Assembly (NCBI GenBank): GCA_964459445.1
Contig: CAYWMP010000002.1
Span: 4,293-68,292 of the forward strand
Direction of reading: 5' to 3'
DNA length: 64,000 nt
DNA from: an uncultured Desulfobacteraceae bacterium
GTDB lineage: Bacteria; Desulfobacterota; DSM-4660; Desulfatiglandales; HGW-15
Position 1 is the stretch's first letter. Every line of letters starts with the position of its first letter. This document shows positions 30,056 to 63,936 of this stretch, piece after piece. Under the pieces are notes generated by a model. That model ran no database searches. It worked only from the letters and a program-made list of their open reading frames with translations, and was not told the DNA's origin. A program made the translations under genes and the position numbers.

Positions 30056-30922
30056 CTACGATTTATAAAGCACTCGGCAGGTATTCACCAACCTTCCAAT
30101 CTTTTCGATCTCAATGACAATCTCATCCCCGTCTTTCATGTAAATGGAAGGCTCTCTGAAAGTCCCCACGCCATGGGGTGTGCCCGTGAGTATGACATCC
30201 CCCGGATAGAGCGTAAAGTTTTGGGAGAGGAAGTGGATGAGTTTGGGCAGTTTGAAAATAATTTCATTGGTGTTGCTGTCCTGCATGAGTTCGCTATTCA
30301 ATCGGGATTTTATGGCCAGGGCATGGGGGTCCGGTATCTCATCTTGGGTCACGATCCAGGGCCCCAGGGGGCAAAATGTATCCAGGGTTTTCCCTCTCAC
30401 CCATTGGCCGTCTCCGAACTGAAGGTCTCTGGCACTGACGTCATTGGCGCAGGTATAGCCAAACACGGCGTCCATGGCCTCGTTTTCGGAACAATGGTAA
30501 ATAGACTTTCCCATAATGACGGCGAGTTCTGCCTCAAAATCCACCTTTTTCGTAACTTCCTCGTACCAGGTAATCACACCGTCGTGACCCAGGAGGCTGT
30601 TGGGGAATTTGGCAAAGATGAGGGGTTTTTCAGGGACCGTGCCTTTGCTTTCCCGGATATGGTCCATGTAGTTCAGGCCGATGCCGATGATCTTGGAAGG
30701 GCGAGTCACTGCCGGGGCAAATTGTACTTTCTCAAACGAAATGGCATCGGCCGAAGGTTGAAGATTTCGACCGCCCTCAATGAAGGCGGTCATGTCCCCG
30801 TCAAAATCCATCGGGACCAGCCCTCGATCCTCAACCATACCCAATCGAATATTCTGTCCATCGTAAAATTGTGCAATTTTCATAATGTCGTTCCCTACTA
30901 ATGGTATAATGATATTAGTCAA
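30056..30922 (-). CDS. fumarylacetoacetate hydrolase (FAH) family protein
   Basis: Typical FAH-family C-terminal domain (GIGLNY..H, FEAELAVIMG, GDVILTGTPHGVG). The start may be the ATG at 30883 (MKIAQFYDG). Confidence 0.8.
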   Translation of the reverse strand: MTNIIIPLVGNDIMKIAQFYDGQNIRLGMVEDRGLVPMDFDGDMTAFIEGGRNLQPSADAISFEKVQFAPAVTRPSKIIGIGLNYMDHIRESKGTVPEKPLIFAKFPNSLLGHDGVITWYEEVTKKVDFEAELAVIMGKSIYHCSENEAMDAVFGYTCANDVSARDLQFGDGQWVRGKTLDTFCPLGPWIVTQDEIPDPHALAIKSRLNSELMQDSNTNEIIFKLPKLIHFLSQNFTLYPGDVILTGTPHGVGTFREPSIYMKDGDEIVIEIEKIGRLVNTCRVLYKS

Positions 30923-31254
30923 AGGAAGAGTATTTGATCAGATACGCAATTGCCCATGTCCAACAATCTGATGAATAGCTTACTTTAGCTGAAGAAAATC
31001 TCCCAGATTAGATAAAAATTTTCCATAGATAGCAGCTACATTCAATCCAGGTATTTTGAAGGTTTTTTATCGTAAGGTTGCGCTCGGGTCTGCGCATGAT
31101 AGTAATGACTACCAAGTGTATTCTATTGAGAATTTGGGTTGATAGCATTGTCGAAAATGTCCCCTATCTATTCCCTCCCGGCAAAATTCAATTTTCAGGA
31201 AAGGGAATAGACGTTTGTCACGCTTATCAACTACGTCCCCCAAATCCCCTGAGG

Positions 31255-32250
31255 CTAGCCGATGCTGCAAGAGATACCCATTTTTATGAACAAATTCCGA
31301 AACCGTTCGACCTGCCCGGTCTCTGGAGTGGGCGTAGAATCATAGGGGAAATCGCGATCCAGCATTTCGTATTTTGATTTGCCGAAGCTATGAAATGGAA
31401 GCAGATTCACTTCTCTCAGTGAATCCAATTTTATAACAAAAGTGGCAATCGCCCGAATGACCTCGATATTGTCGTTAAAATCTGGAATAACCGGGACCCT
31501 AATGATTAAATCTTTTCCCAGTTCGGAAAGAAACACAACATTTTTCAGAATTACTCGGTTTGACACCCCGCTGAAGCGGCGGTGGCATTCCTCGTCAATA
31601 CACTTGATATCGTAAAGAAAGAGGTCATTCACAGCGGCAATCTGCGAAAGTTTTTTATGGTCGGTTATGTACCCGCAGGTTTCAATCGCTGTGTGAAGAT
31701 ATTGCTTTCGGCAAGACGCGAGCAAGGCTTGCAAAAATTGAAATTGGAGAAGGGGCTCCCCACCGGAGAAAGTTACCCCTCCGCCGGATCTCGTGTAGAA
31801 GGGAGCGGAATGCGTGACCTCCCCGATCACCCTCGAAACGGACATGGTTGTGCCGAACAGTTTTCGGGCACCGTTCTCGCAGGCGGCCACACACCTACCA
31901 CAACCGATACAGGCGCGCCGATCAAGCCGGATAATTTCCTCCAAAGTCACGGAAATTGCCTGCTCCGGGCATACCTCAATGCAACGCCCACAGCCTACGC
32001 AACGCTTCTGCAGAATCCCGAGTTCCGCCCGTGGACTTTGAGATTCGGGATTTGAACACCAGAGGCAGTTAAGGGGGCAGCCTTTAAGAAAGACAATCGT
32101 CCGGATACCGGGTCCATCATGGATGGAATAATCCTGGATATCGAATATCGTCCCCTCAATCTCTTGAAACCTGCTTTGGAGATGGCTTGTGTTACTTTGC
32201 ACGACGTGGAACTCTCCCCTTAGGGCTCGCACGAAATACCTGCACATCAT
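31255..32250 (-). CDS. glycyl-radical enzyme activating protein (radical SAM)
   Basis: GCPLNCLWCSNPE (CX3CX2C), preceded by HDGPGIRT. Two ferredoxin-type motifs: CVGCGRCIEVCP and CIGCGRCVAAC. The exact start is uncertain. Confidence 0.9.
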   Translation of the reverse strand: MMCRYFVRALRGEFHVVQSNTSHLQSRFQEIEGTIFDIQDYSIHDGPGIRTIVFLKGCPLNCLWCSNPESQSPRAELGILQKRCVGCGRCIEVCPEQAISVTLEEIIRLDRRACIGCGRCVAACENGARKLFGTTMSVSRVIGEVTHSAPFYTRSGGGVTFSGGEPLLQFQFLQALLASCRKQYLHTAIETCGYITDHKKLSQIAAVNDLFLYDIKCIDEECHRRFSGVSNRVILKNVVFLSELGKDLIIRVPVIPDFNDNIEVIRAIATFVIKLDSLREVNLLPFHSFGKSKYEMLDRDFPYDSTPTPETGQVERFRNLFIKMGISCSIG

Positions 32251-32296
32251 TTGTTTTCAGGTATGAGTTTAGGTTTTTGAAACGCGATCATACTAT

Positions 32297-32513
32297 GGGC
32301 ACTAGGGTCTTTTTTCAAGACGGCCGCCCAAATAGAGCCCGTGCTTCTTACCGCCCCCATGATTCGGCAGGTGGTTCCGGGAGAGGCACAAAAGGCTAAT
32401 GGCGCAGGAACGAGATGGCTCTGTGGGGATGCTTCCAAAACATGTTGGATGTGGGTGCCGTTCCACGACCTCCCAAGATATGGCGGCGCTCTTGAAAAAA
32501 GACCCCAGTGCCC
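32297..32513. repeat. 217-bp element bounded by 32-nt terminal inverted repeats (MITE-like)
   Basis: gggcactagggtcttttttcaagacggccgcc (32297-32328) is the near-perfect inverted complement of ggcggcgctcttgaaaaaagaccccagtgccc (32482-32513). Confidence 0.8.
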
Positions 32514-32576
32514 AATGATCACATCATTTCATAAATCTAAAATGTTACGTTTTCAGATATTCTTGTGCGAGATTTC

Positions 32577-35075
32577 TTAGAGCATCATATTTTCGGTTCT
32601 TCCAATAATGTCATCCTGAACTTTCGGGTCGAGTGCAGTAAAAAGGGCGCTGTACCCGGCCACTCGTACCATAAGATCCGGGTACTTTGCCGGGTGGTGC
32701 TTTGCCTCCCGAAGCGTTTCGCCGTCAACGATATTAAACTGAACGTGCATGCCTTTCAAATCCCCCAGAAAGGTGCGGATGAGGGAGGAGAACTTTCTCT
32801 TTCCTGTTTCATCTTTCAGTACAAGAGGAGAAAATTTCATGTTAAAAAGGTTCCCGCCGGAACAGAGTAGATTTGGTATTTTGGCAACCGATTTCATTGC
32901 TCGGAGGGGGCCCTTTCGGTCCATGCCATGGGTTGGGGAGGTCGTATCCGCAGTTGGTTCCCCATCTTGGCGACCATCCGGCGTAGCGCCTATATACTGA
33001 CCAAAGGGGATGTTCCCAGAAACCGTACTTGTCGATGCCTGCCAGGTGCATCCCCGAGGTCCCTTGCCGTATCTTGTCACTTTGTACTTGGGCAGTTCCC
33101 GGCAGAAAAGATCGAGGGCCGCGGCGGTTAAATTGTCCGCATAATCATCATCGTTTCCGTATTTGGGAACCTCAAGAAGCATTCTGCGAATCTCCTCGCC
33201 TGAGGGAGTGGTCGCTTGATCACTGAAATTCGTATCCATTGCATGAAGTAGCTGTGCTCCGGTCAGTTTCTCTTCCTTGTAGACAAGTTTTTTGATAGCA
33301 GCCAATGAGTCGCCCACATTGGCGAGTCCAACGATCAGCGGTCCACAAAAATCGTATACCGCGCCACCTTGCTTGATGGTTTTCCCTCTTCCAATACATT
33401 CTTCCACAAAACAAGAAACAAAAGGGTTAGGGACGAGTTCTTCCATGGAAGTGTCTATACTATTATCAAGGGTTACCTGGAGTTTAGTAAAAAAACGGGC
33501 TTGACGTTGCCAGTTCTCCAAAACTTCTTCGAATGAACCAAAAGAGGAAAGGTCGCCGTCCTGGGGATGCAGCCTGTGGCCGGTTTTCGGATCGCACCCA
33601 CCGTGCAGGGCGATTTCCAATATTTTAAGCATACTTATAAAAGAAGCCCCATTTGGCCGATACCCCTCCCTTCCCTCCACAATCGGTTCGACACAGCCAA
33701 CAACCGACCAGTTCACCGCATCTTCATAGTCGATGCCTCGATTCAAAAGGGACGGGATGACAGTCTCATCGCTGTACAGCCCCGGTTGTCCCCCACCGAG
33801 TCTGACAACGTCTATGACCTCCTGCAGAAACGCCTCAGACACGCCATCATGAAACCGGAAAGAAAGTGATGGCGCACTGAGCCTTATGGCCTTCTGAGTA
33901 CCCAGAATGAGGTAAGAAAGGAGATTGGTTGCATCTTTGCCGCCATAATGCTGACCACTGAAGGTTATATTTTGAAAAACCTGATAACCCGCGAAGAATT
34001 GGGTACTGTCCCAATCACGGATCTTATTCACTGTAAACAGTTTGAGCCAAAAGCACTGCAGCAGTTCGGCCGCCTCTTCGGTAGTGATCGCGCCTCGTTC
34101 GAAATCAGAAAGAAGATAGGGATAGAGCGTCTGATCCAATCGTCCAAGAGACATTGAATGACCGTTATTTTCGATCTGAAGGATAGCCTGTACGAACCAT
34201 AGCGATTGCAGGGCCTCATAAAAACTCCTCGCCGGATTGTAGGGAACTCGTTCACAGATTGCTGCAATCTTCTTCAGCTCATCTTGCCGCTTCGGATTCT
34301 TTTCCTTTGTAGCCAGCTCATTCGCAAGCGCTGCATACCGATTGGCAAAAATGACGGCGCCATCCAAGGCCAAAAGGGCTGCAGAGTAAAAACCTCTTTT
34401 CCGTACCGCCTCAGGCTCTGCCATATCCAAGGCCTCCAGGTTCTGTTTAATCTCCTCCACAAGTCCCTTAATGCCCTTGCTCAGCAGTTTTTTAAAATCG
34501 ATGGTGATATGGCCGTCCCCGCCCTGCATGAGCCAGTAACTGTTAATCACCATCATATCCGAGGCTTTCTGAACATCATCGGGGAGGATTGACAAAACCC
34601 GTTCGCAATGGGTTTTCGTGTGCCATTGGGGCAGAAGCTCTTTAAGTTCGGCGCGGACATCCGACCGAATCGCATACCGATCACCGGGACGTTCATCAAA
34701 ATAAAAGGGATTACCATCGAGCTCCCGTTCAATCCATTCGACTTCAAACTCCGGGAAAAGCTCAACACCACGCGGGTGTTTCGCCGTATTCCCCACCAGT
34801 AATTCACCGTCGAGAATATAAATGGACATATTTTCGAGCATGCGGGTAAGAGCCTTGGCCCTCTTCATAATGATGGAATCGCTCTGATACTCCTGGTAGG
34901 CCTGGGTGTAATGCCGTACGCGCTCAGAGGATATTTCCGGCATAAGATCAAGAAGATGATTCCGCAATCGGTCGATTCTTTCCGATCTTTTCTCTGCGAT
35001 TTTTTTGGCTGTAACGCCATCCGGCAGCCCCGGATCCCTCAACGTTTCGGCGGTTGATGCGCTAACCCCTTGCAT
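32577..35075 (-). CDS. glycyl radical enzyme, PFL2 / diol-dehydratase-like (eliminase-type), substrate unknown
   Basis: 832 aa. C-terminal glycyl radical motif VRVAGYSALF. Thiyl loop VVGCVEP carries the Glu typical of 1,2-eliminases. An activase gene lies downstream. Confidence 0.9.
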   Translation of the reverse strand: MQGVSASTAETLRDPGLPDGVTAKKIAEKRSERIDRLRNHLLDLMPEISSERVRHYTQAYQEYQSDSIIMKRAKALTRMLENMSIYILDGELLVGNTAKHPRGVELFPEFEVEWIERELDGNPFYFDERPGDRYAIRSDVRAELKELLPQWHTKTHCERVLSILPDDVQKASDMMVINSYWLMQGGDGHITIDFKKLLSKGIKGLVEEIKQNLEALDMAEPEAVRKRGFYSAALLALDGAVIFANRYAALANELATKEKNPKRQDELKKIAAICERVPYNPARSFYEALQSLWFVQAILQIENNGHSMSLGRLDQTLYPYLLSDFERGAITTEEAAELLQCFWLKLFTVNKIRDWDSTQFFAGYQVFQNITFSGQHYGGKDATNLLSYLILGTQKAIRLSAPSLSFRFHDGVSEAFLQEVIDVVRLGGGQPGLYSDETVIPSLLNRGIDYEDAVNWSVVGCVEPIVEGREGYRPNGASFISMLKILEIALHGGCDPKTGHRLHPQDGDLSSFGSFEEVLENWQRQARFFTKLQVTLDNSIDTSMEELVPNPFVSCFVEECIGRGKTIKQGGAVYDFCGPLIVGLANVGDSLAAIKKLVYKEEKLTGAQLLHAMDTNFSDQATTPSGEEIRRMLLEVPKYGNDDDYADNLTAAALDLFCRELPKYKVTRYGKGPRGCTWQASTSTVSGNIPFGQYIGATPDGRQDGEPTADTTSPTHGMDRKGPLRAMKSVAKIPNLLCSGGNLFNMKFSPLVLKDETGKRKFSSLIRTFLGDLKGMHVQFNIVDGETLREAKHHPAKYPDLMVRVAGYSALFTALDPKVQDDIIGRTENMML

Positions 35076-35224
35076 AGTAACCTCCCTTGGATTCGTAAAA
35101 AAAGTTGCATTTATACACTTCTGTTTTTGGCTATTTTGTTGTTATTTAAGCGAAAACTCTGTGATTTTTTGAATCCTTGTCCCTAAAGCTTCATAATGAA
35201 ATGTTGTAAACCCAATCTCAACCA

Positions 35225-35251: not shown

Positions 35252-35399
35252 ACAATGGTAATTTCTCTAGAGTCCTTCAACGAAAAAGCAAGTTCTTATC
35301 ACCTCACCTCATCTACCTCACCAATTGCATATGAAAATGAACATAATATTTCATAACTAAAAACGTTAGGAAACAATCTTGGGAGCAGGAGGCAATCAT

Positions 35400-36257
35400 A
35401 TGATTCAAAAAATTCTGTTCGGGAAAACAAATCATCAGAGTTCCAGGGCCATTTTCGGTTCTGTAAGCCTAGGCGGAGTCAGTCAGTCTGAAGCTGATCG
35501 AGCGCTGGACCTCCTGTGGGAATACGGTGTAAACCATATTGATACGGCACCCAAATACGGAGAGGCCGAACTGCGGTTGGGACCATGGATGAAGCAGTAT
35601 CGCAATCAATTTTTCCTGGCCACCAAAACCAATGAACGAACCTATCAGGATGCAAAGGAGCAGTTTTATCGATCGCTGGAAAGACTCCAGGTGGACAGCG
35701 TTGATCTACTTCAGTTTCACAACCTGACGGATGTAGTCGAACGTGAAATCATCATGGGACCGGGCGGGGCGTTGGAATTCGTGATCGAAGCAAAAGAAAA
35801 GGGATTAACCCGATATATCGGCATCACCGGTCACGGCCTTCATTCCCCGCGGTTTCATATGCAGACCCTGGAACGATTTGCCTTTGATAGCGTATTGCTA
35901 CCTTGCAATTATTTGCTCTTGCAAGACCCGAATTACGCAGCCGAATTTGAAAATCTTCTTACTTACTGCCGGAATCATCACGTAGCGGTGCAGACAATCA
36001 AGTCGATCGCGCGGGGTTACTGGGGGGATAAGGGGTGGAGTCACAGCACCTGGTATGAACCCCTGTCAGACGAAAAGGCTATCACAAAAAATGTTCACTG
36101 GGTATTAGGTATTCCCGATATATTTCTCAACACGGTAGGCGATTTGCAGGAACTGCCCAAGGTTTTGAAAGCTGCCGATAGTTTTGAAAAACGCCCTTCC
36201 AACGAAGAAATGACCGAAACGGTTGAAAAAATGAATATGCAGAAGCTATTCAGTTAG
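35400..36257 (+). CDS. aldo/keto reductase
   Basis: AKR-like features (DTAPKYGEAE, LATK, GITGH). AGGAGG precedes the ATG at 35400. Confidence 0.8.
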   Translation: MIQKILFGKTNHQSSRAIFGSVSLGGVSQSEADRALDLLWEYGVNHIDTAPKYGEAELRLGPWMKQYRNQFFLATKTNERTYQDAKEQFYRSLERLQVDSVDLLQFHNLTDVVEREIIMGPGGALEFVIEAKEKGLTRYIGITGHGLHSPRFHMQTLERFAFDSVLLPCNYLLLQDPNYAAEFENLLTYCRNHHVAVQTIKSIARGYWGDKGWSHSTWYEPLSDEKAITKNVHWVLGIPDIFLNTVGDLQELPKVLKAADSFEKRPSNEEMTETVEKMNMQKLFS

Positions 36258-37069
36258 CCGTTCCGATTTTCTTTAACCCTATTCATAAATGCTTTTACGC
36301 GGTTTACATCAATATGGTTTTCAAACACGCCGTCGTATTTGAAGGTCGTCCCGACTACTGCCCCGTCGGCGATACCGAGCTGTTCTTCCACATTCTCAAG
36401 GCGCACACCCGTATTGGCGAATACAATTGTATCAGGCACGGCCTCTTTGACCTTTTTTAATACTTCCTTGTCCGTCTGCACCCCCGCCGTCAGCCCGGAG
36501 ACACACAAAGCATCCGGGCGGTAATTGAATACGGTCGATTTGGCAATGTCCACAATGTCGCGCTCTGCCAAATAGAGTGCCGCTTCCGGCACAATATTGA
36601 ACAACAGCTTTACATGTTGGGCTCCGATGGCGTGCTGATGGCGCACCACGGTCCCGCAGTCGGTATTCCATAAGCCGAAATCGCTGGCGTAAACGCCTGT
36701 GAAAACCTCGCGCACAAAAAGGGCATCGGTCGCAACAGCCAGATCTAGTGATGCTGCAGGATCCCAGAGAACATTGACGCCGAAGGGTATGTGAATTTCA
36801 GGCATCAGCTCGCCAATAATTCTCGCCATGGCAGCCACAGTGACCGTCTCCACCTTTTTCAGATAAGGCAAACTAAACTCATTTGAAAACATCACGGCAT
36901 CAACACCGCCTTCCTGAAGGGCCGCAAGATCCTTGCGTGCCCATTCGACGACGTCCTCCATTCCCTTTTGTATATCAAAGGAAGGATCGCCCGGAAGAGC
37001 GTCCAAATGGCACATGCCGATAATGGGTTTGCGACATCCAAATACTTCTTCTATCCAGTCTTTTCTCAT
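36254..37069 (-). CDS. BtpA/SgcQ-family TIM-barrel protein (paralogue 1)
   Basis: The N-terminus FGCRKPIIGMCHLDALPGDPSF matches the BtpA/SgcQ family as I recall it. It is paralogous to 37658-38479. Confidence 0.6.
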   Translation of the reverse strand: MRKDWIEEVFGCRKPIIGMCHLDALPGDPSFDIQKGMEDVVEWARKDLAALQEGGVDAVMFSNEFSLPYLKKVETVTVAAMARIIGELMPEIHIPFGVNVLWDPAASLDLAVATDALFVREVFTGVYASDFGLWNTDCGTVVRHQHAIGAQHVKLLFNIVPEAALYLAERDIVDIAKSTVFNYRPDALCVSGLTAGVQTDKEVLKKVKEAVPDTIVFANTGVRLENVEEQLGIADGAVVGTTFKYDGVFENHIDVNRVKAFMNRVKENRNG

Positions 37070-37166: not shown

Positions 37167-37610
37167 TTAAAAGGGAACGCCGGAGACGAGGATTACATTG
37201 GCGTAGGGCGTGAATTCACCTGTTCTTACGATGGCCTTTACTTCTTCTCCCTCTTCAGCACCTCTTAGACCCAGGTGTTTGAATTTTTCGTGAGGGATTT
37301 TTTCCACCACAATAGCGTTGCCCTTATTATCCAAACCTTCAACAATCTGTATCAATTCCTTATATACTTCAGGACTTATTTCCTCTGTCTCATTGGCAAT
37401 AATTATCTTCTCTATTTCCAGATCATTTAAAACGACTTTCACCACATCTAAAAATCTCGGAAGATTATACCCCACCGCAACGTCAACTTTTTTTGTTAAA
37501 TCATGTACCGGAAAAGGGAATCCTCGATCAACAACGAATAACATATTCCCGTGTCCCATATCAGAAACCACTTGGAGTAATTCAGCATTTAAAATACCGG
37601 CCTTTTTCAT
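37167..37610 (-). CDS. RbsD/FucU-family sugar mutarotase/pyranase
   Basis: MKKAGILNAELLQVVSDMGHGNMLFVVDRGFPFP parallels the RbsD N-terminus (..GHTDTLVVCDAGLPIP). Confidence 0.8.
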   Translation of the reverse strand: MKKAGILNAELLQVVSDMGHGNMLFVVDRGFPFPVHDLTKKVDVAVGYNLPRFLDVVKVVLNDLEIEKIIIANETEEISPEVYKELIQIVEGLDNKGNAIVVEKIPHEKFKHLGLRGAEEGEEVKAIVRTGEFTPYANVILVSGVPF

Positions 37611-39648: not shown

Positions 39649-40137
39649 TTATACCTGAATGACGATCCTATCGCCCAGCTTTTTCATTTCAAGATCTTGT
39701 TCAGGTGTAGAGGCTTTTAAGAATACAAAATAATCGAGGACCCGGTCATCGAGCGGTCCGGCAGCAAAATGCCATACACCCTCGGGTAGGTAGATGAGCT
39801 CGCCTTTCATTACAGGAACGATCTGGATTTGATCCGTCACCGGCGTGTCCCCCGGCGGGGCCAGAGGGACAAACATGTCGGAATTTATCGGTATAAGTAT
39901 TTCACATGAAGAAAGATGTCGTTCCATTCTATCGAAAGACGTAAATGGTTTTTTAATTCGGCAGATGCCCACGTCATAACCTTCGGCATAACCGGGAAAT
40001 TTGCCCAGAGGATTCCAGAAATCGAGCAGGTCGTTACTGAAAAGCGGTTCGTCTTGAGGAACTTTTGTTATCCAGAACATGCCGGAAGTGGATTCATCGA
40101 TACTTTCTCGCTCAATACCTTTGATTATTTCGCCCAT
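39649..40137 (-). CDS. AllA (ureidoglycolate lyase)-like cupin-fold protein
   Basis: MERHLSSCEILIPIN resembles the ERHPLGSQAFIP motif of the AllA family. 162 aa. Confidence 0.4.
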   Translation of the reverse strand: MGEIIKGIERESIDESTSGMFWITKVPQDEPLFSNDLLDFWNPLGKFPGYAEGYDVGICRIKKPFTSFDRMERHLSSCEILIPINSDMFVPLAPPGDTPVTDQIQIVPVMKGELIYLPEGVWHFAAGPLDDRVLDYFVFLKASTPEQDLEMKKLGDRIVIQV

Positions 40138-44676: not shown

Positions 44677-44685
44677 GCACGGATC

Positions 44686-46236
44686 TTACCAGTATCCCAT
44701 TTTCTTGGCGGTCTTGACAAAAACCGCATACTGGCGTTTCTGGCTGTCAATGCCGTATTTTTGGACGATCTTTATCCATTCTTCTGCCGTTTTCTCAAGC
44801 GCCTGTTTTGATGTAAGCTCCTTGGTAACGGCCCTGGCCACATTCCTCCCAAGTGCTTCAGCATACTCCACGGCACCAGTCCAATTGAACTGCGGATAGC
44901 CGACCTTTACATTGTCGAGCCCGGCTTGAAGGTGGCCCTTTGCCGTATCCAGACTCTTGAATATCCCTGCGTTTGTCTGCCATTGATCGGAGATGCCTCG
45001 CAGCGGATTGGGTTTTAGATACTCTTCCGGAGTTTCGTAATGGACTTTCATGTAGGGATCGGAGCCGCTGTATTCATCGGCGACATAATGTACACTGTAG
45101 TCCTGATGGCTTAGCCTGTAGATGAAGTAAAAGGCGGCCTCTTTCCTCTCCTTCGGAATCTTTTTTGGAATGGAACAAATGCGGTCATAAAGCAACAGGG
45201 ATCGGTGAACCACCTCATTGCCTTTTCTCCAACCGGGCACGATGGTGGCGGCCTGATCGTCGGCCATTTCCGGTACCTGCTGGGCGGTAAATTCCGCTAA
45301 ATCGATCCACCATAGGGCCATGAGGGTACTGCCGTTCTGCCAGGTCTTAATGGTCTCATCGATGCCCATGCTCTCACCACCAGGCGGTGACCACCGGATG
45401 ACCCGTTTCCACATTTCGAGGGCCTCGACGGCTTCGTCACTGGCGATCAGGGGATTCATGCCTTCATCAAAGTACTTGGCGCCGTTGGCGACAGCCAGGT
45501 CAAAAAAGAAACCCCAGGCAAAGGCCGGCGGATTGACGACCATCTGGGATCCGTAGATGCCGTCAGGTGTCGCTTCAGTCAGGAACTGGGCGACTTTAAG
45601 ATAATCTTCCCATGTCTCAGGCGGTTTCAGCTCCATCTTGAATTGTTTTTCGAACTTCTTCTTCATATCCTTGTCGTTAAAGTATGAAGGCCTGTAGTGC
45701 AACAGGTGAATATCGCCATCCACCATGAGTCCGTAAGTTTTATCGCCCCAAAAGTTATAGAAGTTCTTGTAGGCGGGCATGACCTGGTCCCAGTACTCCT
45801 CGGTTCCCTGGTATTTTGCAAGATATCCGTCCAGGGGCTCAAGGGCTTCCATGTTGACAAAGTCTCCCAAATACATGGGTGAATACACCATAAAGTCCCA
45901 CCTGGGCTTGGCGGTTAACAACTGGGGTACGATCTTGGCATGACCTTCACCGATCTTAAACATCTCACGGTTGCCGACACCGACACCGCATTCCTTGGTA
46001 ATATGGGGTGCGACGAATTCGATGGTGTTGATCCAGTTGGAATCCTGAACGTAGTTAAGGTTGATTCCCTCAAACTTTTTGTTGTTAAGAGGGACTGGAA
46101 GTTTACCGGAACTGGCCAACGTTTTGGAAGGTGATCCAAGCATTGAGCCGGCCAAAGCTGCTCCACCGGCAAGCTTTCCGGATGTCTTGATGAACTCTCT
46201 GCGACCCATCTTCTTTGATAATAACCTGTCACTCAT
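44686..46236 (-). CDS. ABC transporter substrate-binding protein (family 1) with twin-arginine signal
   Basis: MSDRLLSKKMGRREFIKTSGKLAGGAALAGS. AGGAGG lies 7 nt upstream of the ATG at 46236. About 516 aa. Confidence 0.8.
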   Translation of the reverse strand: MSDRLLSKKMGRREFIKTSGKLAGGAALAGSMLGSPSKTLASSGKLPVPLNNKKFEGINLNYVQDSNWINTIEFVAPHITKECGVGVGNREMFKIGEGHAKIVPQLLTAKPRWDFMVYSPMYLGDFVNMEALEPLDGYLAKYQGTEEYWDQVMPAYKNFYNFWGDKTYGLMVDGDIHLLHYRPSYFNDKDMKKKFEKQFKMELKPPETWEDYLKVAQFLTEATPDGIYGSQMVVNPPAFAWGFFFDLAVANGAKYFDEGMNPLIASDEAVEALEMWKRVIRWSPPGGESMGIDETIKTWQNGSTLMALWWIDLAEFTAQQVPEMADDQAATIVPGWRKGNEVVHRSLLLYDRICSIPKKIPKERKEAAFYFIYRLSHQDYSVHYVADEYSGSDPYMKVHYETPEEYLKPNPLRGISDQWQTNAGIFKSLDTAKGHLQAGLDNVKVGYPQFNWTGAVEYAEALGRNVARAVTKELTSKQALEKTAEEWIKIVQKYGIDSQKRQYAVFVKTAKKMGYW

Positions 46237-46379
46237 TGTTAACCTCCTTTCTTTGTCATTCTTTTGTTGAATTTCATCGTTCCCCATTAAGGCCAATTTA
46301 TAGTATATACTAATATCTTAAAAAGTAAATTGGAAATTAGAAAATAACCAAATTTTTATCAAGAATAAACCAGACTTAG

Positions 46380-47351
46380 CTATACTACTTTGACGACGCC
46401 TTCAATGATTTCTTCAACGGTCGGGATGCAGGCGCTTTCCAGCTCTACATTAAAGGGAATGGATGTATCTTTGCCGCATATCCGCATCACCGGACCGTCC
46501 AGATCGTCATAGGCCTCCTCCATGATCATCGCGGCAATATCTCCCCCGATGCCGCCCCGCTTACAGGCCTCGTGCACGATAATCACCCGGCCCGTCTTTC
46601 TGGCAGAGGCCAGCACCGTCTCGCTGTCTAGGGGTTTGATGGTTCTCAGATCAACAACCTCGACGCTGATGCCCTCTTTTTCAAGCAACTCGGCGGCCTC
46701 CAGGCACTTCAAGGTCATATGGGAATAGGTTACAAGGGTGACGTCATCACCGCTTTTTTTTATGTCTGCTTCTCCGAGGGGGATGACATATTGCGCTTCG
46801 GGCACATCTCCTTCGGTCATGTACAGCAACTTATGCTCGATGAATATCACCGGCTGATCATCGCGGATGGAAGCCACCAATAATCCGTAAGCATCAGCGG
46901 GCGTCGACGGCATGACAACCTTTAAGCCCGGGATATGATAGAACAGCGCTTCCAGGCTTTGTGAATGTTGCGCTGCAAGGCCGTTTCCGACCCCGCCCTG
47001 GGTCCTTAAGACCATAGGTACGTGCCCCTGGCCTCCGGACATGAATTCGTATTTGGCCGCTTGATTAACAAGCTGGTCCATGGTGAGAAGTATAAAGTCG
47101 ACAAATAAAATTTCCACTACAGGGCGTGTGCCTACAAGGGCGGCGCCAACCGCCGCTCCGGTAAATGAGGCTTCGGCGATCGGGGTGTCAATCACCCGCT
47201 CGGCACCGAATTCCTTGAGCAGTCCTTCTGTTACTTTATAGGATCCGCCGCGTTGGGCGACATTTTCTCCCATGACAAACACCAGGTTGTCGCGTCTCAT
47301 TTCCTCGAAAAGGGCCCGGTTTAAGGCCTCACGGTACATTATTTCGGTCAT
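46380..47351 (-). CDS. TPP-dependent 2-oxoacid/acetoin dehydrogenase E1 component, beta subunit
   Basis: MTEIMYREALNRALFEEM..DTPIAEASFTG.. is a typical PdhB/AcoB sequence. The track start at 47435 overlaps the alpha gene; the ATG at 47351 is preferred. Confidence 0.85.
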   Translation of the reverse strand: MTEIMYREALNRALFEEMRRDNLVFVMGENVAQRGGSYKVTEGLLKEFGAERVIDTPIAEASFTGAAVGAALVGTRPVVEILFVDFILLTMDQLVNQAAKYEFMSGGQGHVPMVLRTQGGVGNGLAAQHSQSLEALFYHIPGLKVVMPSTPADAYGLLVASIRDDQPVIFIEHKLLYMTEGDVPEAQYVIPLGEADIKKSGDDVTLVTYSHMTLKCLEAAELLEKEGISVEVVDLRTIKPLDSETVLASARKTGRVIIVHEACKRGGIGGDIAAMIMEEAYDDLDGPVMRICGKDTSIPFNVELESACIPTVEEIIEGVVKVV

Positions 47352-47373
47352 ATACAACTCCTGTTCGGTTTCA

Positions 47374-48375
47374 TCAGAAGTCAGGTATGCTTGCCAAAAA
47401 TTCATCCACGGATGGTTGGGGGCTGTTCTGGGCAAATTCGACGGCTTCGTTCAATTTACGATCTACCTGTTCCTCGATTTTTTTTGCTTTTTGCTTGTCT
47501 TTTATTTTGCCCCGTAAAATATGAATTGGATCCCTGGCTTTCCATTTCGCCAAAATTTCTTGATCCATATAGAGGCCCTGATCGTTTACGTGATGACCCG
47601 CGTGCCGATAGGTCTCGGCCTCAATCAGTGTCGGTCCCTGTCCATCGAGGGCCCTTGCGGAGGCTTTTAGGGTTGCCTGATAAACGGCGACCGCGTCGTT
47701 ACCGTCGACGACCATTCCAGGCATACCGTAGGCTTCCCCTTTGCACGCCATGTCGCACTCGCCGAAAGAGCATTCGAAGGGCGTTGATGAGGCATAGTGA
47801 TTGTTTTCCAGCATAAAGATGACCGGCAGTTTATAGAGCGCCGCCAGATTCATCGACTCAGCGAAAACGCCGTTATTGGCGGCGCCATCGCTGAAAAAAC
47901 ATACCACGACCTGTTTGCTCTTTTTGACCTTGATTCCCATTGCCGCTCCGACCGCAATGGGGATCCCCCCGCCGACAATCCCGTTAGCTCCCAGATTATT
48001 ATCCGCTTTGCTTGAGATGTGCATGGATCCCCCCAGACCTCTGCAGTATCCGGTTTCTCTACCCATAATCTCAGCCACCATCCGTTTTAAATCTCCCCCT
48101 TTGGATATACAGTGCCCGTGTCCGCGATGAGTGCTGACGATATATCCTTCGGCGCCGATGGCCGCACATGCCCCAGCTGCAATGGCTTCCTCACCCAGAT
48201 AGGGGTGCAGGAATCCCCGAATATGGCCCGCGCGATATAGCTTCGTGCACGTATATTCAAACTGGCGCGTGGCGTAGGCATTGCGATACATTTGCAAAAG
48301 TATCTTTTCGTCGATAAGCGGCGCAGATGGCCTGGATTTGGCGGTCTTTTTGGCGTGCGATTTTTTCCCCATTTT
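47374..48375 (-). CDS. TPP-dependent 2-oxoacid/acetoin dehydrogenase E1 component, alpha subunit
   Basis: TPP motif FFSDGAANNGVFAESMNLAALYKLPVIFMLENNHYA and YRHAGHH. Start probably at MGKKSHAKK. Confidence 0.85.
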   Translation of the reverse strand, partial: KMGKKSHAKKTAKSRPSAPLIDEKILLQMYRNAYATRQFEYTCTKLYRAGHIRGFLHPYLGEEAIAAGACAAIGAEGYIVSTHRGHGHCISKGGDLKRMVAEIMGRETGYCRGLGGSMHISSKADNNLGANGIVGGGIPIAVGAAMGIKVKKSKQVVVCFFSDGAANNGVFAESMNLAALYKLPVIFMLENNHYASSTPFECSFGECDMACKGEAYGMPGMVVDGNDAVAVYQATLKASARALDGQGPTLIEAETYRHAGHHVNDQGLYMDQEILAKWKARDPIHILRGKIKDKQKAKKIEEQVDRKLNEAVEFAQNSPQPSVDEFLASIPDF

Positions 48376-48520
48376 TCCTTCTCTTCGGTAATGAAATAAG
48401 GATAGTATGCTTTTCAGACTATAAACCAATAACCCCTAAGTTGGCTTTAACTCGATCTGGGTTTAACTATCGACAATAACGGATAACAAACAATAAACAT
48501 GGCGTGTTTTGCGTGGAACA

Positions 48521-50068
48521 TTATGAAATAGCGTCCGTCATTTTATGCATCAAATCGGACAGGCGGGAATAGGTTTCGACATATTGATCGAAGTAGAATT
48601 TGTAAGCTTCATGATTTGCGGATTGCGGCTCGATGCGCTCGTGTATTTTCACCATCTTTCCGGCGGCTTGACTCACCGTAGGATACAGGCCGGCTGCGAC
48701 GCTGGCTAAAATTGCGGATCCAAGCAACGGCGCATCCTGTACCTTGGGGATGTGGATCGGTATCCCGCTCACGTCGGCGTGAATTTGCATCCAGAGTCGA
48801 CTTTTTGTGGGACCTCCACAGGCATAAATTTCTTCCGCTTCATAGCCGGCTTCGCGAAACCGTCGAAAAATAAACTCGGTGCCGTAGGCAATGCCCTCCA
48901 TTATCGCCCTGAAGATGTGTTCCGGTGTGTGGCGCAGAGATAAGCCCCAGATGGCCCCTCTCAGATTGGGGTCGACCAGCGGTGTCCGGTTGCCCTGAAA
49001 TGAATCCAGAACGATGAGTCCTTCGGACCCCGGTGGAATTTGCTCAGCCCCTTCCCTCATTAAATCATAGAGGCTCTTTTGCAGTGCCTCGGCCTCCTTT
49101 GCCTTGTGGCCGAGAAAATGGTTTTTATACCATTGGATGATTGATCCCGTGGATATTTGTCCTCCCTCCACCGTATACAGTCCTCGAACAACTGCATTAG
49201 GATAGGTGCCGAAAATCCCTTTGCGGTGGAAATCCTTCCGGGACATCCCCAGATGAAGATGAGAGGATCCTGTGATAAAAGCGAGGCGGCCGGGCTCAAT
49301 GACATTCAAACCAATCATGCCGACAAAGGCATCGGCGCCTCCCTGGGCCACGCTTGTTCCCTCCCTTAAACCCAGTTCCGAGGCCGCCGAAGCAGAGAGC
49401 TGGCCGACGGGCTGATCCATATCCAGCACGTCGGGCGGAAATTTGGCAATCAGATCATCCAGCCCGATGGTTTCGTAAAAAGAGGCCGGAAAACCGCCTT
49501 CCTCATCGTCGAAATACCAGCGGATGGAAGCATTGTTGATGCTGGCCGTCAATCTGCCGGTTAGGCGGTAATTTATGAAATCGAGGTACTCACAGACAAC
49601 TTCGGCCTGAGAAAAGATCTCCGGCTCATTCCTTTTCACCCACAGGGTTTTGCAGGGCATCCATTCGGCGGACACGTTGCCGTAGCCGTTATACTTTAAA
49701 GCCGCGTGCCCGCTTTCGGCAATCTGGCGGGCCTCGCGTCCCGCCCGCACATCCATCCACAACAGGGCCTTACGAAGGGGGGTCATCTTGCGATCCAGGA
49801 AAACAACCGTGCAGCAGGTAGCGTCCAATCCGATCCCTTTCACCGCTTCAGGAGGCACATCCGAATTCTTCAACAGATCCTGCATCACCTGCTTGAGGGC
49901 TGCCCACCAATCCTCGGGATCCTGCTCCGCCCATCCCGATTGTGGAAAGTGGGTCTCATAAGCCTTTTGCCTTGCCAGAATCAGATTTCCGTCCAGATCA
50001 AAAAGACCGGCACGAATTGATTCCGTACCCCCATCGATCCCAATTACATATACGTCTTGATCAGTCAT
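48521..50068 (-). CDS. FGGY-family carbohydrate kinase (ribulo/xylulo/fuculokinase-like)
   Basis: IGIDGGTESIRAGLFD N-terminal motif and the C-terminal GGPTKSRLWMQIHADV. Confidence 0.85.
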   Translation of the reverse strand: MTDQDVYVIGIDGGTESIRAGLFDLDGNLILARQKAYETHFPQSGWAEQDPEDWWAALKQVMQDLLKNSDVPPEAVKGIGLDATCCTVVFLDRKMTPLRKALLWMDVRAGREARQIAESGHAALKYNGYGNVSAEWMPCKTLWVKRNEPEIFSQAEVVCEYLDFINYRLTGRLTASINNASIRWYFDDEEGGFPASFYETIGLDDLIAKFPPDVLDMDQPVGQLSASAASELGLREGTSVAQGGADAFVGMIGLNVIEPGRLAFITGSSHLHLGMSRKDFHRKGIFGTYPNAVVRGLYTVEGGQISTGSIIQWYKNHFLGHKAKEAEALQKSLYDLMREGAEQIPPGSEGLIVLDSFQGNRTPLVDPNLRGAIWGLSLRHTPEHIFRAIMEGIAYGTEFIFRRFREAGYEAEEIYACGGPTKSRLWMQIHADVSGIPIHIPKVQDAPLLGSAILASVAAGLYPTVSQAAGKMVKIHERIEPQSANHEAYKFYFDQYVETYSRLSDLMHKMTDAIS

Positions 50069-50457
50069 AGGTTCCTTCCTTCATTCAGTCTTTGTTTTTT
50101 GAGTTTTTACCATCTCTTGCAAGACTAAATCAAGGCCGGCGAGAAGGGTATCCGCAATATTAGAAAAAATTTCCCAAATTTATATTCATCATCAACAGCG
50201 ACGGTCCCTACTCAAAGAAAACTTCTATTGATGAGCTCAAAAAAGCATCATGTCCTTTATCCTTGTGGATAAACCCATAGATCATAAAATACTGGTTGAA
50301 TGGGTTTCAGAAATTTCCAACACAGGCTTGCCTACATAAATGGAATGTGATACCCAAATTGCGTGAAAGCCAACTGGGAGTTATTCGTTGCTTGTTGCTC
50401 GTTTTTATTAAAAAATAGAATTCTGCACAATGAGACGTGATCGAAGGAGGAGGACCA

Positions 50458-51462
50458 ATGAAAAAAATAATTAACAGCCCTGAAGATTTTGTACCGGAAA
50501 TGTTGGATGGCCTGCTAAAGGCTCATCCGGATCAGTTGTCCTATGCAGAAGAAATCCATGCGATTGTACGGGCCGATGCACCGGTTAAAGGGAAAGTCGG
50601 CCTGGCAACAGGTGGTGGGTCCGGCCATTTGCCCGTGTTTTTGGGTTATGTCGGCAAGGGGATGCTGGATGGATGCGCGGTCGGTGATGTCTTTCAATCC
50701 CCCAGTGCGGAGCAGATGTTGGCCGTAACCCGGCGCATCAATGGCGGCAAGGGTGTCGTGTATATCTACGGCAACTACGGGGGGGATGTCATGAACTTTG
50801 ATATGGCCGCCGAAATGGCGGACATGGAGGATATCCCTGTTCGGACGGTTCTGGTTAAAGACGATGTGGCCTCGGCGCCGCCGGCGGAGGCTGACCGGCG
50901 CAGGGGAGTTGCCGGAATGGTATTTGCCTTCAAGGTTGCAGGAGCCAAAGCAGATCGCGGGGGATCGGCAGAGGAAGTTGCGGAGATCGCCGCGAAAGCG
51001 CTGGCCAACATCCGAACCATGGGTGTGGCGCTTTCGCCGTGCACTGTGCCCAGAGCCGGAAAGCCTACCTTCACCATCGCAGATGATGAAATGGAAATCG
51101 GCATGGGTATTCATGGTGAGCCCGGCATGAAACGTGAAAAGCTGCAAACGGCCGATCAGATTGCCGAGCGTATGGCGAATGCCATTCTCGATGACATGCA
51201 ACCTGCTTCCGGTGACCGTCTGGCCGTGATGGTCAACAGCTTGGGCGCCACACCTCCAGAAGAGCTCTATATTCTCTTTCGCAAGGCCCATGAAATTATC
51301 ACAGCAAGAGGTTTGACCGTTCACCGAACCTTCATCGGGGAATATGCCACTTCAATGGAAATGGCCGGGGCCTCCTTTACTTTCTTCCGGTTGGATGGTG
51401 AACTGGCCGACCTACTGGACGCGCCGGCCCATACCCCGTTTTTCACCAAAGTCGGTGATTGA
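50458..51462 (+). CDS. dhaK: dihydroxyacetone kinase subunit DhaK
   Basis: MKKIINSPEDFVPEMLDG.. and the GGGSGHLP motif. GGAGGAGG precedes the ATG at 50458. Confidence 0.9.
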   Translation: MKKIINSPEDFVPEMLDGLLKAHPDQLSYAEEIHAIVRADAPVKGKVGLATGGGSGHLPVFLGYVGKGMLDGCAVGDVFQSPSAEQMLAVTRRINGGKGVVYIYGNYGGDVMNFDMAAEMADMEDIPVRTVLVKDDVASAPPAEADRRRGVAGMVFAFKVAGAKADRGGSAEEVAEIAAKALANIRTMGVALSPCTVPRAGKPTFTIADDEMEIGMGIHGEPGMKREKLQTADQIAERMANAILDDMQPASGDRLAVMVNSLGATPPEELYILFRKAHEIITARGLTVHRTFIGEYATSMEMAGASFTFFRLDGELADLLDAPAHTPFFTKVGD

Positions 51463-51533
51463 ACTAAGCGCTCTTCAGGCGGGCAGGAGGATAGGGGGCC
51501 GATAAACGATAACGTACTTTTAAGGGTGGTGCC

Positions 51534-52169
51534 ATGACTGATTCCGCGGTGATTCGTTCTCAGCAGGTCATTGAGGCGTTGAAACGGGTAGCTGACGCTC
51601 TGGAAACCCAGCATGAGTATTTGACCGAGCTTGACCAGGCCATGGGAGATGGAGACCTGGGTATCACCGCTTCTAAAATTTCTGCTGCCCTTAAGGAATA
51701 TGCCGCCGGATCGACCGGCGATGATCTTGGCCAGTATTTGGCTTCGGCCGGGATGGCCGTCAACCGGGCCGCCCCCAGCACCATGGGCACTCTGCTGGCC
51801 ACGGCCCTGATGAGGGCGGGAAAAGAAACTAGTGGGCTTGACGCATTAAGCGGGAAACATCTGGTGGTCATGCTCGAAGCGGCAGACCAGGGTATTCAGG
51901 AGCGGGGCAAGGCCAAACCCGGAGATAAAACCATCGTGGATGCCCTTCATCCGGCCGCGCAAACCCTTAAAAGTGCCCTTGAAGAGGAAGCTGACCTCAA
52001 GAAAGCTGGAGACAAGATGCTGGCAGCAGCCGAAAAAGGCCTTGAGGATGTAACCCCGCTCCAAAGCCGCATCGGGCGAGCAAGTTGGGTTGGAGAGCGG
52101 ACCAAAGGTCTGGTGGATCCCGGGTGTGCTTTATTTGTGGTTATTCTCAAGGCAATTTTAAATACCTAA
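51534..52169 (+). CDS. dhaL: dihydroxyacetone kinase subunit DhaL
   Basis: LTELDQAMGDGDLGIT and PGDKTIVDAL motifs. Confidence 0.85.
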   Translation: MTDSAVIRSQQVIEALKRVADALETQHEYLTELDQAMGDGDLGITASKISAALKEYAAGSTGDDLGQYLASAGMAVNRAAPSTMGTLLATALMRAGKETSGLDALSGKHLVVMLEAADQGIQERGKAKPGDKTIVDALHPAAQTLKSALEEEADLKKAGDKMLAAAEKGLEDVTPLQSRIGRASWVGERTKGLVDPGCALFVVILKAILNT

Positions 52170-63932: not shown

Positions 63933-63936
63933 TATT

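Follow-up and report, generated by a model that had tools for sequence, protein, structure and literature searches.

The CXE eliminases and isomerases form a defined class among the glycyl radical enzymes (GREs), for which His164, Cys433 and Glu435 are the residues named in glycerol dehydratase (GD) (2026 review). For YbiW and PflD of Escherichia coli, the published chemistry is C-O cleavage beside the carbinol carbon of a sugar phosphate (2026 review), and these two are the one recent known example of GRE-dependent sugar catabolism. Here we describe a locus at positions 30056–52169 of a 64,000-nucleotide stretch of DNA (the window) from an uncultured Desulfobacteraceae bacterium (contig CAYWMP010000002.1). 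In this locus a GRE is found together with members of PF03437 (the BtpA/SgcQ family) and of the AllA/DUF4867-like cupins, long-standing families without an assigned reaction, in a tight and conserved context.

E. coli YbiW/YbiY and PflD/PflC, with FsaA/FsaB, form an anhydro-sugar-6-phosphate C-O lyase pathway, defined by activity on 1,5-anhydroglucitol-6-phosphate or 1,5-anhydromannitol-6-phosphate. They resemble the locus in having a CXE-type GRE with its own activase amid genes for sugar uptake and phosphorylation. Uptake in E. coli, however, is by a phosphotransferase system (PTS), whereas the locus uses an ABC transporter and kinases and has no fructose-6-phosphate aldolase (FSA), and its GRE clade is found in linkage with genes for RbsD, ribokinase and pentulokinase. 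The B12-independent glycerol and propanediol (PD) dehydratases and the dha regulon share with the locus the TIGR01774 subfamily, the Cys, Glu, His and GHS residues, and the presence of DhaKL and a reductase, a combination known from anaerobic glycerol fermentation, but the GRE is 40% identical to GD, and glycerol dehydrogenase, 1,3-propanediol dehydrogenase and a microcompartment shell are absent from the locus. The E. coli sgc genes also lie in a sugar-uptake locus, and SgcQ shares 69% identity and its subtype motifs with one of the two BtpA-family proteins, BtpA1. The sgc genes include a PTS and SgcE, a paralogue of ribulose-phosphate 3-epimerase (RPE), whereas the core enzyme of the locus, BtpA2, belongs to another subtype. 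AllA and DUF4867 proteins (SftX/SqvB) share the cupin fold and a 2His-2Glu motif with the cupin of the locus, and DUF4867 also occurs in sugar-catabolic clusters with FGGY kinases. The locus cupin differs in having no DUF4867 match in Pfam, a borderline AllA match of 24.2 bits and no allantoin genes around it. Finally, the locus shares an RbsD equivalog with canonical rbsDACBK-R operons, and both a GRE orthologue and a BtpA2 homologue lie inside bona fide rbs loci elsewhere. However, its kinase is not RbsK, its transporter is of the CUT1 type with two ATPases and a 516-residue binding protein carrying a twin-arginine (Tat) signal, and many of its enzymes are additional.

Comparison with related loci supports the reading of this stretch as one conserved catabolic locus and not a random neighbourhood. 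It consists of a fixed core, collinear in five other loci, and interchangeable accessories, of which the window holds the largest set, and parts of it are shared by several uncultured anaerobes. That it functions as a single catabolic island for a reducing sugar of the pentose or ribose type is a proposition that we consider evenly balanced, and our confidence in the specific reactions is much lower than in this general reading. Compared with YbiW/PflD, the new elements are another GRE clade, another uptake system, central steps entrusted to families without assigned chemistry, and a very rare cupin.

Gene content and conservation of the locus

Gene families were assigned by Pfam and NCBIfam profile scans of the open reading frames (ORFs) of the locus. 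All 19 genes listed in an earlier sequence-only reading were recovered in the same order, at the same coordinates and strands and with the same families, as follows (scores in bits):

30056–30922, minus strand: FAH-family protein with the fumarylacetoacetate hydrolase fold, downstream of the GRE activase; Pfam FAA_hydrolase 245.5
31255–32250, minus strand: GRE activase, radical SAM protein with a ferredoxin-like insert; TIGR02494 353 against a cut-off of 174, Radical_SAM and Fer4
32577–35075, minus strand: GRE of the CXE eliminase/isomerase type; PFL-like 675.9, Gly_radical 105.3
35379–36257, plus strand: aldo/keto reductase (AKR); Pfam Aldo_ket_red 88.2
36254–37069, minus strand: BtpA1, SgcQ-type TIM barrel of the BtpA family; PF03437 308.8, TIGR00259 328.6
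37167–37610, minus strand: RbsD-type D-ribose pyranase of the RbsD/FucU family, core; NF008761 138.9 against a cut-off of 93
37658–38479, minus strand: BtpA2, BtpA-family protein, core; PF03437 244.9, TIGR00259 229.1
38512–39477, minus strand: PfkB-family sugar kinase, core; Pfam PfkB 188.5
39649–40137, minus strand: AllA/DUF4867-like cupin, core; Pfam Ureidogly_lyase PF04115 24.2 against a cut-off of 23
40183–41295, minus strand: MalK/UgpC-type ABC ATPase 1, core; ABC_tran, UgpC/MalK-like
41402–42517, minus strand: MalK/UgpC-type ABC ATPase 2, core; ABC_tran, UgpC/MalK-like
42530–43375, minus strand: CUT1-type ABC permease 1, core; BPD_transp_1
43388–44323, minus strand: CUT1-type ABC permease 2, core; BPD_transp_1
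44686–46296, minus strand: extracellular solute-binding protein of about 516 residues, core; SBP_bac_1 47.3, Tat signal GRREFIK
46380–47435, minus strand: E1 beta, thiamine diphosphate (ThDP)-dependent; Transket_pyr and Transketolase_C
47374–48429, minus strand: E1 alpha, ThDP-dependent; E1_dh 249
48521–50068, minus strand: FGGY kinase; FGGY_N/C
50437–51462, plus strand: DhaK; Dak1 417
51534–52169, plus strand: DhaL; Dak2 141

The cupin was used as the marker for gathering related loci because it is very rare. Nine genes, encoding the Tat-signal binding protein, both permeases, both ATPases, the cupin, the PfkB kinase, BtpA2 and RbsD, form a core that is collinear, at 57–87% identity, in these loci:

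L007/L011: Spirochaetota metagenome-assembled genome (MAG)
L008/L010: Spirochaetota MAG
L009/L019: metagenome contig
L015: GCA_054039655.1
L020: JGI contig Ga0209427

The named relatives, two of the five, are all Spirochaetota MAGs. The binding protein is the best-conserved protein of the locus (80–87% identity in L007, L008, L015 and L020, 75% in L009). The permeases are 80–87% identical across the core loci and RbsD 79–82% in L007, L008, L015 and L020, falling to 60% in locus L030 and in Mesotoga. BtpA2 (70–74%), the PfkB kinase (60–71%) and the cupin (49–59%) follow, and both ATPases are kept in every core locus at 66–76% identity. CUT1 sugar importers normally have a single ATPase that works as a homodimer; the retention of two that differ from each other (35% identity) is unusual for this type.

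BtpA2 orthologues (70–79% identity) adjoin a PfkB gene in every case, and the PfkB-BtpA2 pair appears to be a minimal functional unit. In L013 (8908–10822, GCA_964583615.1) a PfkB (69%) and BtpA2 (79%) pair occurs by itself, with neither transporter nor cupin nor RbsD; an IF-2B-family gene resembling MtnA or ribose-1,5-bisphosphate isomerase lies a few genes away.

Most of the accessory blocks recur as well. Contigs of the same organism in the Logan collection carry an identical GRE sequence with the same neighbours as in the window. In L007 the GRE and activase (73% and 56% identity) lie directly upstream of the core with a LacI gene in between; activase identity is 56% in L003/L007 and 52% in L030. 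In L023 the cupin is followed at once by a GRE of 57% identity, so that the cupin adjoins a GRE in at least three settings (L007, L023 and the window). Two further pairs of GRE and cupin clusters match in the length of their longest contig (8559 and 5660 bp) and probably derive from the same contigs. The E1 alpha/beta pair precedes a set of binding protein, ABC transporter and cupin genes on JGI contig 3300042731, and DhaL-DhaK lies downstream of the core in L008, L015 and L020. FGGY homologues of 53–56% identity are present in L008 and L015, and one of 53% stands beside a GRE of 51% in L018. Thus each of GRE, E1, DhaKL and FGGY is found again in one or more other genomes, adjoining either the core or another of these blocks, at only 35–73% identity, which suggests retained linkage and not recent shared ancestry. 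The co-localisation of these genes, on which the sequence-only reading had staked its case against a chance juxtaposition, was thereby confirmed.

Other genes vary. We found no counterpart of BtpA1 and FAH in the related loci compared, and among these the AKR was seen only in near-identical Logan contigs. Conversely, some relatives have a block that the window lacks: an old yellow enzyme (OYE)-like FMN/FAD reductase of 650 residues, electron transfer flavoprotein (ETF) beta and a Fer4-ETF alpha protein, directly upstream of the core in L007 (L003 5436–9658) and L008 (1–3945). An ETF alpha gene is found upstream of the core in L020 (30–1094). This block may replace the GRE branch by a reductive route that involves no radical, and its comparable position in relatives that have no GRE hints that dehydration plus reduction is recurrently needed by the pathway. 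A LacI-family gene is carried by L007, L015 and L030.

In the window itself the locus is regulator-less, as had been claimed: it contains no regulator gene, the intergenic gaps contain no ORF of at least 35 residues with regulator character, and an Rfam scan of the window returned no riboswitch or RNA gene. Equally, none of its genes belongs to a Pfam isomerase or aldolase family, which agrees with the claim that no recognisable isomerase or aldolase is encoded. From FGGY (50068) to BtpA1 (36254) the minus strand carries a run of 14 genes with gaps of 12–362 bp, and GRE, activase and FAH form a further minus-strand stretch with spacers of 326 and 332 bp. The AKR gene is divergent from the GRE gene and convergent with BtpA1, whose 3' end it overlaps, and DhaK-DhaL is divergent from FGGY. 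Promoter and terminator scans gave counts equal to the shuffled expectation, from which operon boundaries cannot be drawn. Several of the listed ORFs are probably too long by a few codons, with probable starts at Met21 (binding protein), Met29 (E1 beta), Met19 (E1 alpha), Met8 (AKR), Met8 (DhaK) and Met14 (FAH).

The locus is bordered on the left by beta-oxidation genes and on the right by dut, an M16 peptidase gene and pnp. The left cluster (21830–29957, plus strand) encodes a DUF362 protein, 3-hydroxyacyl-CoA dehydrogenase, a FadB-like bifunctional enzyme, thiolase and a 606-residue acyl-CoA dehydrogenase with a PF12806 C-terminal domain. The housekeeping run on the right (52504–64000, minus strand) marks the edge of the island; dut, the M16 peptidase and pnp were Pfam-checked, and the ORFs beyond pnp resemble truB, rbfA, infB and nusA by size and order only. 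Unusually long non-coding gaps flank the activase gene (30923–31254, 332 bp, and 32251–32576, 326 bp), with no Rfam match and no convincing ORF in them. The nearest signalling genes, 17–23 kb from the locus, encode a 654-residue adenylate/guanylate cyclase-TPR protein (6644–8608, plus strand) and a 910-residue GAF-PAS hybrid histidine kinase with a receiver domain (9787–12519, plus strand).

The glycyl radical enzyme

The GRE carries a GCVEP loop (Cys461, Glu463), GDGH and NGHS motifs and the glycyl radical motif RVAGYS (residues 804–809). The radical motif, the GCxE loop and an activase one gene downstream are those of the CXE 1,2-eliminases and isomerases. It scores 800.6 bits against TIGR01774 (cut-off 678) and lies below all NCBIfam equivalog cut-offs. 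YbiW is its top PDB match (648.8 bits), with identities of 41% to YbiW and 37% to PflD. The clade is sharply bounded, with orthologues at 61% identity or more and then a drop to 53%, and kinases accompany every GRE in it. A scan of glycyl-radical papers from 2024–2026 turned up none on this clade. By sequence, the enzyme is a CXE-type eliminase of a clade without a characterised member.

The equivalents of GD His164 (as His189), His281 and Ser282 are retained. Of the GD positions that we take to be substrate-pocket residues (His281/Ser282, Tyr339, Asp447 and Tyr640), the last three depart from GD, with Tyr339 replaced by Phe, Asp447 by Gly or Asn and Tyr640 by Ser. Furthermore, the GRE has an R.G.GP.G insertion of 6–7 residues which is absent from GD. 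It has in common with YbiW this insertion, a GYRxxG loop after the Cys loop, Arg473, Lys568 and small residues at the position of GD Tyr640, features which suggest a larger and possibly anionic substrate.

The MAG that harbours L007 contains a second GRE, 68% identical to that of the window (L004, 504–20323, CAZFTJ010000003.1). It is preceded by genes for a GntR regulator, a short-chain dehydrogenase/reductase, a 2-hydroxyacid dehydrogenase and an FGGY kinase, and MTTB-family methyltransferase, B12-binding and URO-D genes are found nearby. Diversification of the clade has thus taken place inside a single genome. A GRE-rich sugar island is present in L005 (1–22493) and L006 (JGI Ga0452209_000015 / Ga0452208_000226). 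Its three GRE paralogues and two activases are interspersed with three sets of CUT1 binding-protein and permease genes, with three genes of the URO-D family (PF01208) and with a pair made up of PfkB and GatZ/KbaZ.

The class of sugar and the remaining enzymes

The substrate is probably a pentose sugar of the ribose type, rather than a deoxyhexose or a sulfosugar, because several lines of gene content point that way: the RbsD pyranase equivalog, the GRE among rbs genes in L030, the BtpA2 homologue in Mesotoga, the neighbourhood in L018, the pentulokinase-like FGGY kinase, and the extra proteins of L015. RbsD passes the D-ribose pyranase model and fails that for L-fucose mutarotase (28.3 bits, cut-off 141). 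In L030 a GRE orthologue of 72% identity lies with its activase between rbsD (60%) and rbsR-rbsK, and the kinase there is a true ribokinase equivalog (345 bits, cut-off 299.65). The BtpA2 homologue of Mesotoga (51%) is part of an operon rbsR-rbsD-btpA-rbsK-rbsA-rbsC-rbsB. In L018, from a Christensenellaceae genome, the GRE is flanked by the FGGY homologue, an RPE gene and a zinc-dependent alcohol dehydrogenase gene.

The FGGY kinase scores 360.9 bits on the ribulokinase model (cut-off 428), 309 on the pentulose-kinase subfamily (408.7), 168 on GlpK and 96.5 on fuculokinase (470.9), placing it closest to the pentulose (ribulose/xylulose) kinases. AP_endonuc_2 isomerase/3-epimerase-like proteins occur in L015 and L020 and not in the window; the extra proteins of L015 are nearest to L-rhamnose/xylose isomerases and D-psicose 3-epimerase, and are compatible with ribose-ribulose-xylulose or allose-psicose-fructose interconversions.

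Both BtpA proteins match PF03437 and TIGR00259, and both fall below the equivalog for photosystem I BtpA (149.5 and 193.4 bits, cut-off 400). The sequence-only reading had spoken of two BtpA/SgcQ proteins, and the family assignment stands for both. They are not of one kind, being only 32% identical to each other: BtpA1 is the SgcQ orthologue, with the 69% identity extending over 265 residues of the E. coli K-12 protein, whereas NCHLNG and VKHGSH (KHGSH) motifs are found in BtpA2 and not in BtpA1 or SgcQ. The substrate and functions of the sgc operon are still to be established, and its genes sit in the KpLE2 cryptic prophage island (2026 paper). Since an identity of 69% is unusually high between an uncultured anaerobe and an enterobacterium, and since sgc lies in a prophage island, horizontal spread of the SgcQ-type gene is plausible.

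An AlphaFold2 model of BtpA2 (pLDDT 91.7) is a TIM barrel. Foldseek found only remote ribulose-phosphate-binding barrels for it (TrpA, HisF, ThiE, NanE, PRAI, HPS and RPE, with TM-scores of 0.54–0.61). Gly-rich phosphate loops are present, and the catalytic face of the barrel bears His, Glu, Asp and Lys residues that are conserved (alignment A2). BtpA2 may accordingly be a sugar-phosphate enzyme with enediolate chemistry, for which an epimerase, an isomerase or an aldolase would all fit. A PDB sequence search with BtpA1 gave no match. When the BtpA profile was compared with that of E. coli SgcE, of the RPE family, the alignment was confined to the C-terminal phosphate-binding segment and had a probability below 1%, and comparison with FsaA revealed no similarity. 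On JGI contig 3300042731 a PfkB plus GatZ/KbaZ-like pair sits where PfkB and BtpA2 sit in the window, a position which hints at a possible role of BtpA2 as sugar-phosphate epimerase. Agrobacterium tumefaciens reportedly degrades sugar by way of a tagatose kinase and a GatZ/KbaZ-type tagatose-6-phosphate 4-epimerase, a route said to have been described by Wichelecki et al. in 2015. The likeness to that route is one of gene position only, on the JGI contig, and there is no GatZ/KbaZ gene in the window.

The cupin has an invariant 2His-2Glu metal motif, Glu72-His74-Glu79-His123 (alignment A1). Its AlphaFold2 model (pLDDT 92.3) is closest in Foldseek to AllA (TM-score 0.76–0.78), followed by DUF4867 (about 0.5). 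A PDB sequence search retrieved only AllA (E 0.04), and no NCBIfam model matched. The protein appears to be a divergent AllA relative and not an AllA orthologue. More remote relatives of the cupin bridge the AllA and DUF4867 Pfam families. The crystal structure of a DUF4867 protein has the same 2His-2Glu site; its role has been called 'enigmatic', and the authors suggest that it opens the ring of a ketose or acts in mutarotation. A word-indexed search found 20 clusters of the cupin. Only three cupin loci occur among 185,579 species representatives, and the family proper has only three clusters (50% identity) at E<=1e-30 among 1.84 billion representatives.

E1 beta passes the subfamily model for the E1 beta of pyruvate dehydrogenase (PDH; 427.6 bits, cut-off 321). 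E1 alpha stays below its cut-off (327.8 bits against 393.85) and is nearest in the PDB to human PDH E1 alpha. The pair is predicted to be a ThDP-dependent heterotetramer of the PDH/acetoin dehydrogenase type. The E1 alpha score and the lack of any E2 or E3 partner among the larger ORFs scanned in the window do not place it in a complete PDH or acetoin dehydrogenase complex. In the sequence-only reading, no chemistry was assigned to the families of the BtpA/SgcQ proteins, the cupin and the E1 pair, and this agrees with the searchable literature, which contains no enzymology of BtpA/SgcQ/PF03437.

DhaK (404.8 bits, cut-off 406.25) and DhaL (129.6 bits, cut-off 138.3) are both just below their equivalogs, and no DhaM is present in the window; together they are a putative two-subunit dihydroxyacetone/triose kinase. 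The PfkB kinase is no ribokinase equivalog (TIGR02152 159.1 bits, cut-off 299.65), and its PDB matches are equally distant, with ribokinases at about 100 bits and sulfofructose kinase at 94.8 bits. Among PDB entries the AKR is nearest to 9yeb, 'Oxidoreductase' (251 bits); L-galactose dehydrogenases come next, as weak matches. FAH is nearest in NCBIfam to 2,4-didehydro-3-deoxy-L-rhamnonate hydrolase (207 bits, cut-off 500), and its PDB relatives are HpaG and L-2,4-diketo-3-deoxyrhamnonate hydrolase. For the binding protein, the PDB search returned only weak matches to generic sugar-binding proteins.

A candidate pathway and its competitors

From the directly supported gene families, conserved linkage, catalytic motifs and folds, we infer the substrate class given above and the following reactions and order. 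The sugar would be imported by the ABC system, its pyranose and furanose forms would be interconverted by RbsD, and the 2His-2Glu cupin might carry out a metal-dependent ring opening or isomerisation, by analogy with the role proposed for its DUF4867 relatives. The PfkB kinase would then phosphorylate the sugar, and BtpA2 would epimerise the resulting sugar phosphate or split it by a retro-aldol reaction, in either case through enediolate chemistry. DhaKL and the FGGY kinase would recapture those triose and pentulose products that carry no phosphate. In a parallel radical 'deoxygenation' branch, the GRE would catalyse a 1,2-elimination, its substrate being derived from the sugar and possibly phosphorylated. 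It would most likely remove a hydroxyl group or cleave a C-O bond beside the carbinol carbon of such a substrate, rather than act on free 1,2-propanediol. The carbonyl product might proceed to reduction by the AKR, to the SgcQ-type BtpA1 and to C-C hydrolysis by FAH, and the E1 pair might act on the GRE product, as an alpha-hydroxyketone or 2-oxo compound, by cleaving a C-C bond with the help of ThDP.

Several observations weigh against this proposal. Of the canonical rbs functions only the RbsD pyranase equivalog is present; the RbsK equivalog and an RbsABC (CUT2) transporter are missing. D-ribose itself is a doubtful substrate, because the PfkB kinase fails the ribokinase equivalog, the transporter is of the CUT1 type with an unusually large binding protein, and the extra enzymes would be superfluous, none of them being required by canonical ribose catabolism; a ribose analogue or a rare sugar is just as possible. 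The substrate of PflD is a sugar phosphate although the enzyme lacks the loops which the GRE shares with YbiW, and for this reason phosphate binding deduced from those loops was rejected as proof. The accessory content varies between genomes, and the window-specific BtpA1, AKR and FAH may be unrelated passengers. The gaps between binding protein and permease (362 bp), around the activase (326–332 bp) and between cupin and PfkB (171 bp) are compatible with several transcription units.

Some of these points would also suit a mosaic without a single pathway, in which a conserved sugar ABC/kinase operon came by chance to lie near independent units belonging to other pathways, namely an operon with the GRE, an E1 of the PDH type, and kinases for pentuloses and for dihydroxyacetone. 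No GRE is present in the available sequence of core loci L008, L015 and L020, L030 has a GRE without the core, L013 has PfkB-BtpA2 alone, and both DhaKL and the AKR are on the opposite strand. However, the repeated linkage of GRE, E1, DhaKL and FGGY elsewhere, at identities of only 35–73%, speaks against such a mosaic, as does the presence of an extremely rare cupin beside a GRE in at least three settings. We regard it as unlikely.

More speculative still, and distinctly improbable in our estimate, is that the GRE clade consists of radical dehydratases whose direct substrate is a pentose phosphate or a pentitol phosphate, with cleavage into C3 and C2 fragments downstream. An example would be a ribonucleotide-reductase-like abstraction of the C3 hydrogen and loss of the 2-hydroxyl from ribose-5-phosphate, giving 2-deoxy-3-keto-pentose-5-phosphate. 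The split into C3 and C2 would then fall to AKR reduction together with a BtpA/SgcQ-type aldolase, to FAH-type hydrolysis or to the orphan E1.

The likeness of the GRE to YbiW raises the question of an ABC/kinase version of the 'radical glycolysis' of YbiW/PflD. Here an anhydro- or ether-bridged sugar would be imported and phosphorylated, and opened by the GRE to a 1-deoxy-ketose phosphate; cleavage of this product would fall to the E1 pair or to a BtpA aldolase, and the AKR and DhaKL would dispose of a hydroxyacetone-type fragment. YbiW being the top PDB match, its specific loops with Arg473 and Lys568, the kinases beside every GRE of the clade, and a published chemistry with downstream aldolase and hydroxyacetone logic all speak for this, and an acetoin-dehydrogenase-like E1 would suit a 1-deoxy-2-ketose. 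Yet identity to YbiW is no better than that to GD, neither an FSA-type aldolase nor any profile similarity of BtpA to FsaA was found, and the RbsD pyranase, the gene most constantly linked to the GRE, would have no role for a non-reducing anhydro-alditol. Both the conversion by the GRE and the downstream steps of this scheme therefore appear to us very unlikely.

The sequence-only reading had itself noted a resemblance to a C3-diol route, from a deoxyhexose (fucose or rhamnose) or sulfoquinovose, by a kinase and an unrecognised aldolase, to lactaldehyde or sulfolactaldehyde, on through AKR reduction to 1,2-propanediol or 2,3-dihydroxypropane-1-sulfonate (DHPS), and to dehydration or desulfonation by the GRE. 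The GRE does keep the dehydratase residues (Cys461, Glu463, His189 and GHS, with Phe at GD Tyr339), the AKR gene is divergent from it, the PfkB kinase is as near to sulfofructose kinase (95 bits) as to ribokinases, and the structural relatives of the cupin include DUF4867 of sulfoglycolysis clusters. The pocket of the GRE, with small residues, is however YbiW-like and not GD-like. Scores on the HpsG/HpfG models are 571 (NF048009) and 561.5 bits (NF048011), far below the cut-offs of 1000. The sulfonate clamp of the C-S lyase GREs consists of two Arg and one Gln (2026 review), and no additional Arg or Gln was found in the two clamp regions of the GRE, as mapped approximately by numbering offset; His is retained where IslA has Gln. 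The mutarotase is RbsD and not FucU, the FucU and fuculokinase models failed, and of the sulfo-Embden-Meyerhof-Parnas set (YihQRSTUV) the locus has only a generic PfkB. No genes for FucI/RhaA, for FucA/RhaD or another class II aldolase, for YihS/T/U or a sulfoquinovosidase, for a bacterial microcompartment shell or for an aldehyde dehydrogenase were found in the locus or its flanks. Furthermore, the L030 GRE is accompanied only by rbsD, rbsR and rbsK, with no aldolase or reductase nearby, and the AKR is not conserved alongside the GRE. Neither analogy finds support, and we consider the route highly improbable.

A classical glycerol (dha) regulon, which DhaKL, GRE and AKR might bring to mind, was rejected as the main reading, since the pocket substitutions, the insertion and the failure to pass any equivalog set the GRE apart from GD/PD dehydratases, the FGGY kinase is far from GlpK, and neither glycerol dehydrogenase nor the usual setting of such dehydratases (microcompartment shell, aldehyde/alcohol dehydrogenases, dhaT) is found among the 19 genes or their flanks.

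For the pentose-type island, the context, which comprises a binding protein of its own and a pyranase along with three kinases and a ThDP enzyme, and which is tied to canonical ribose genes in other genomes, narrows the candidate substrates and reactions to a short list and provides an entry point for PF03437, including E. coli SgcQ. Should the GRE clade prove to be a radical dehydratase of pentose phosphates, this would be a radical, transketolase-independent pentose fermentation and would give a first chemistry for BtpA/SgcQ and AllA/DUF4867-like cupins. If the island pathway is confirmed, fermenters of sediment or gut, most of them Spirochaetota, would be seen to have a new anaerobic way of degrading pentose-type sugars, and thousands of BtpA-family genes could be annotated.

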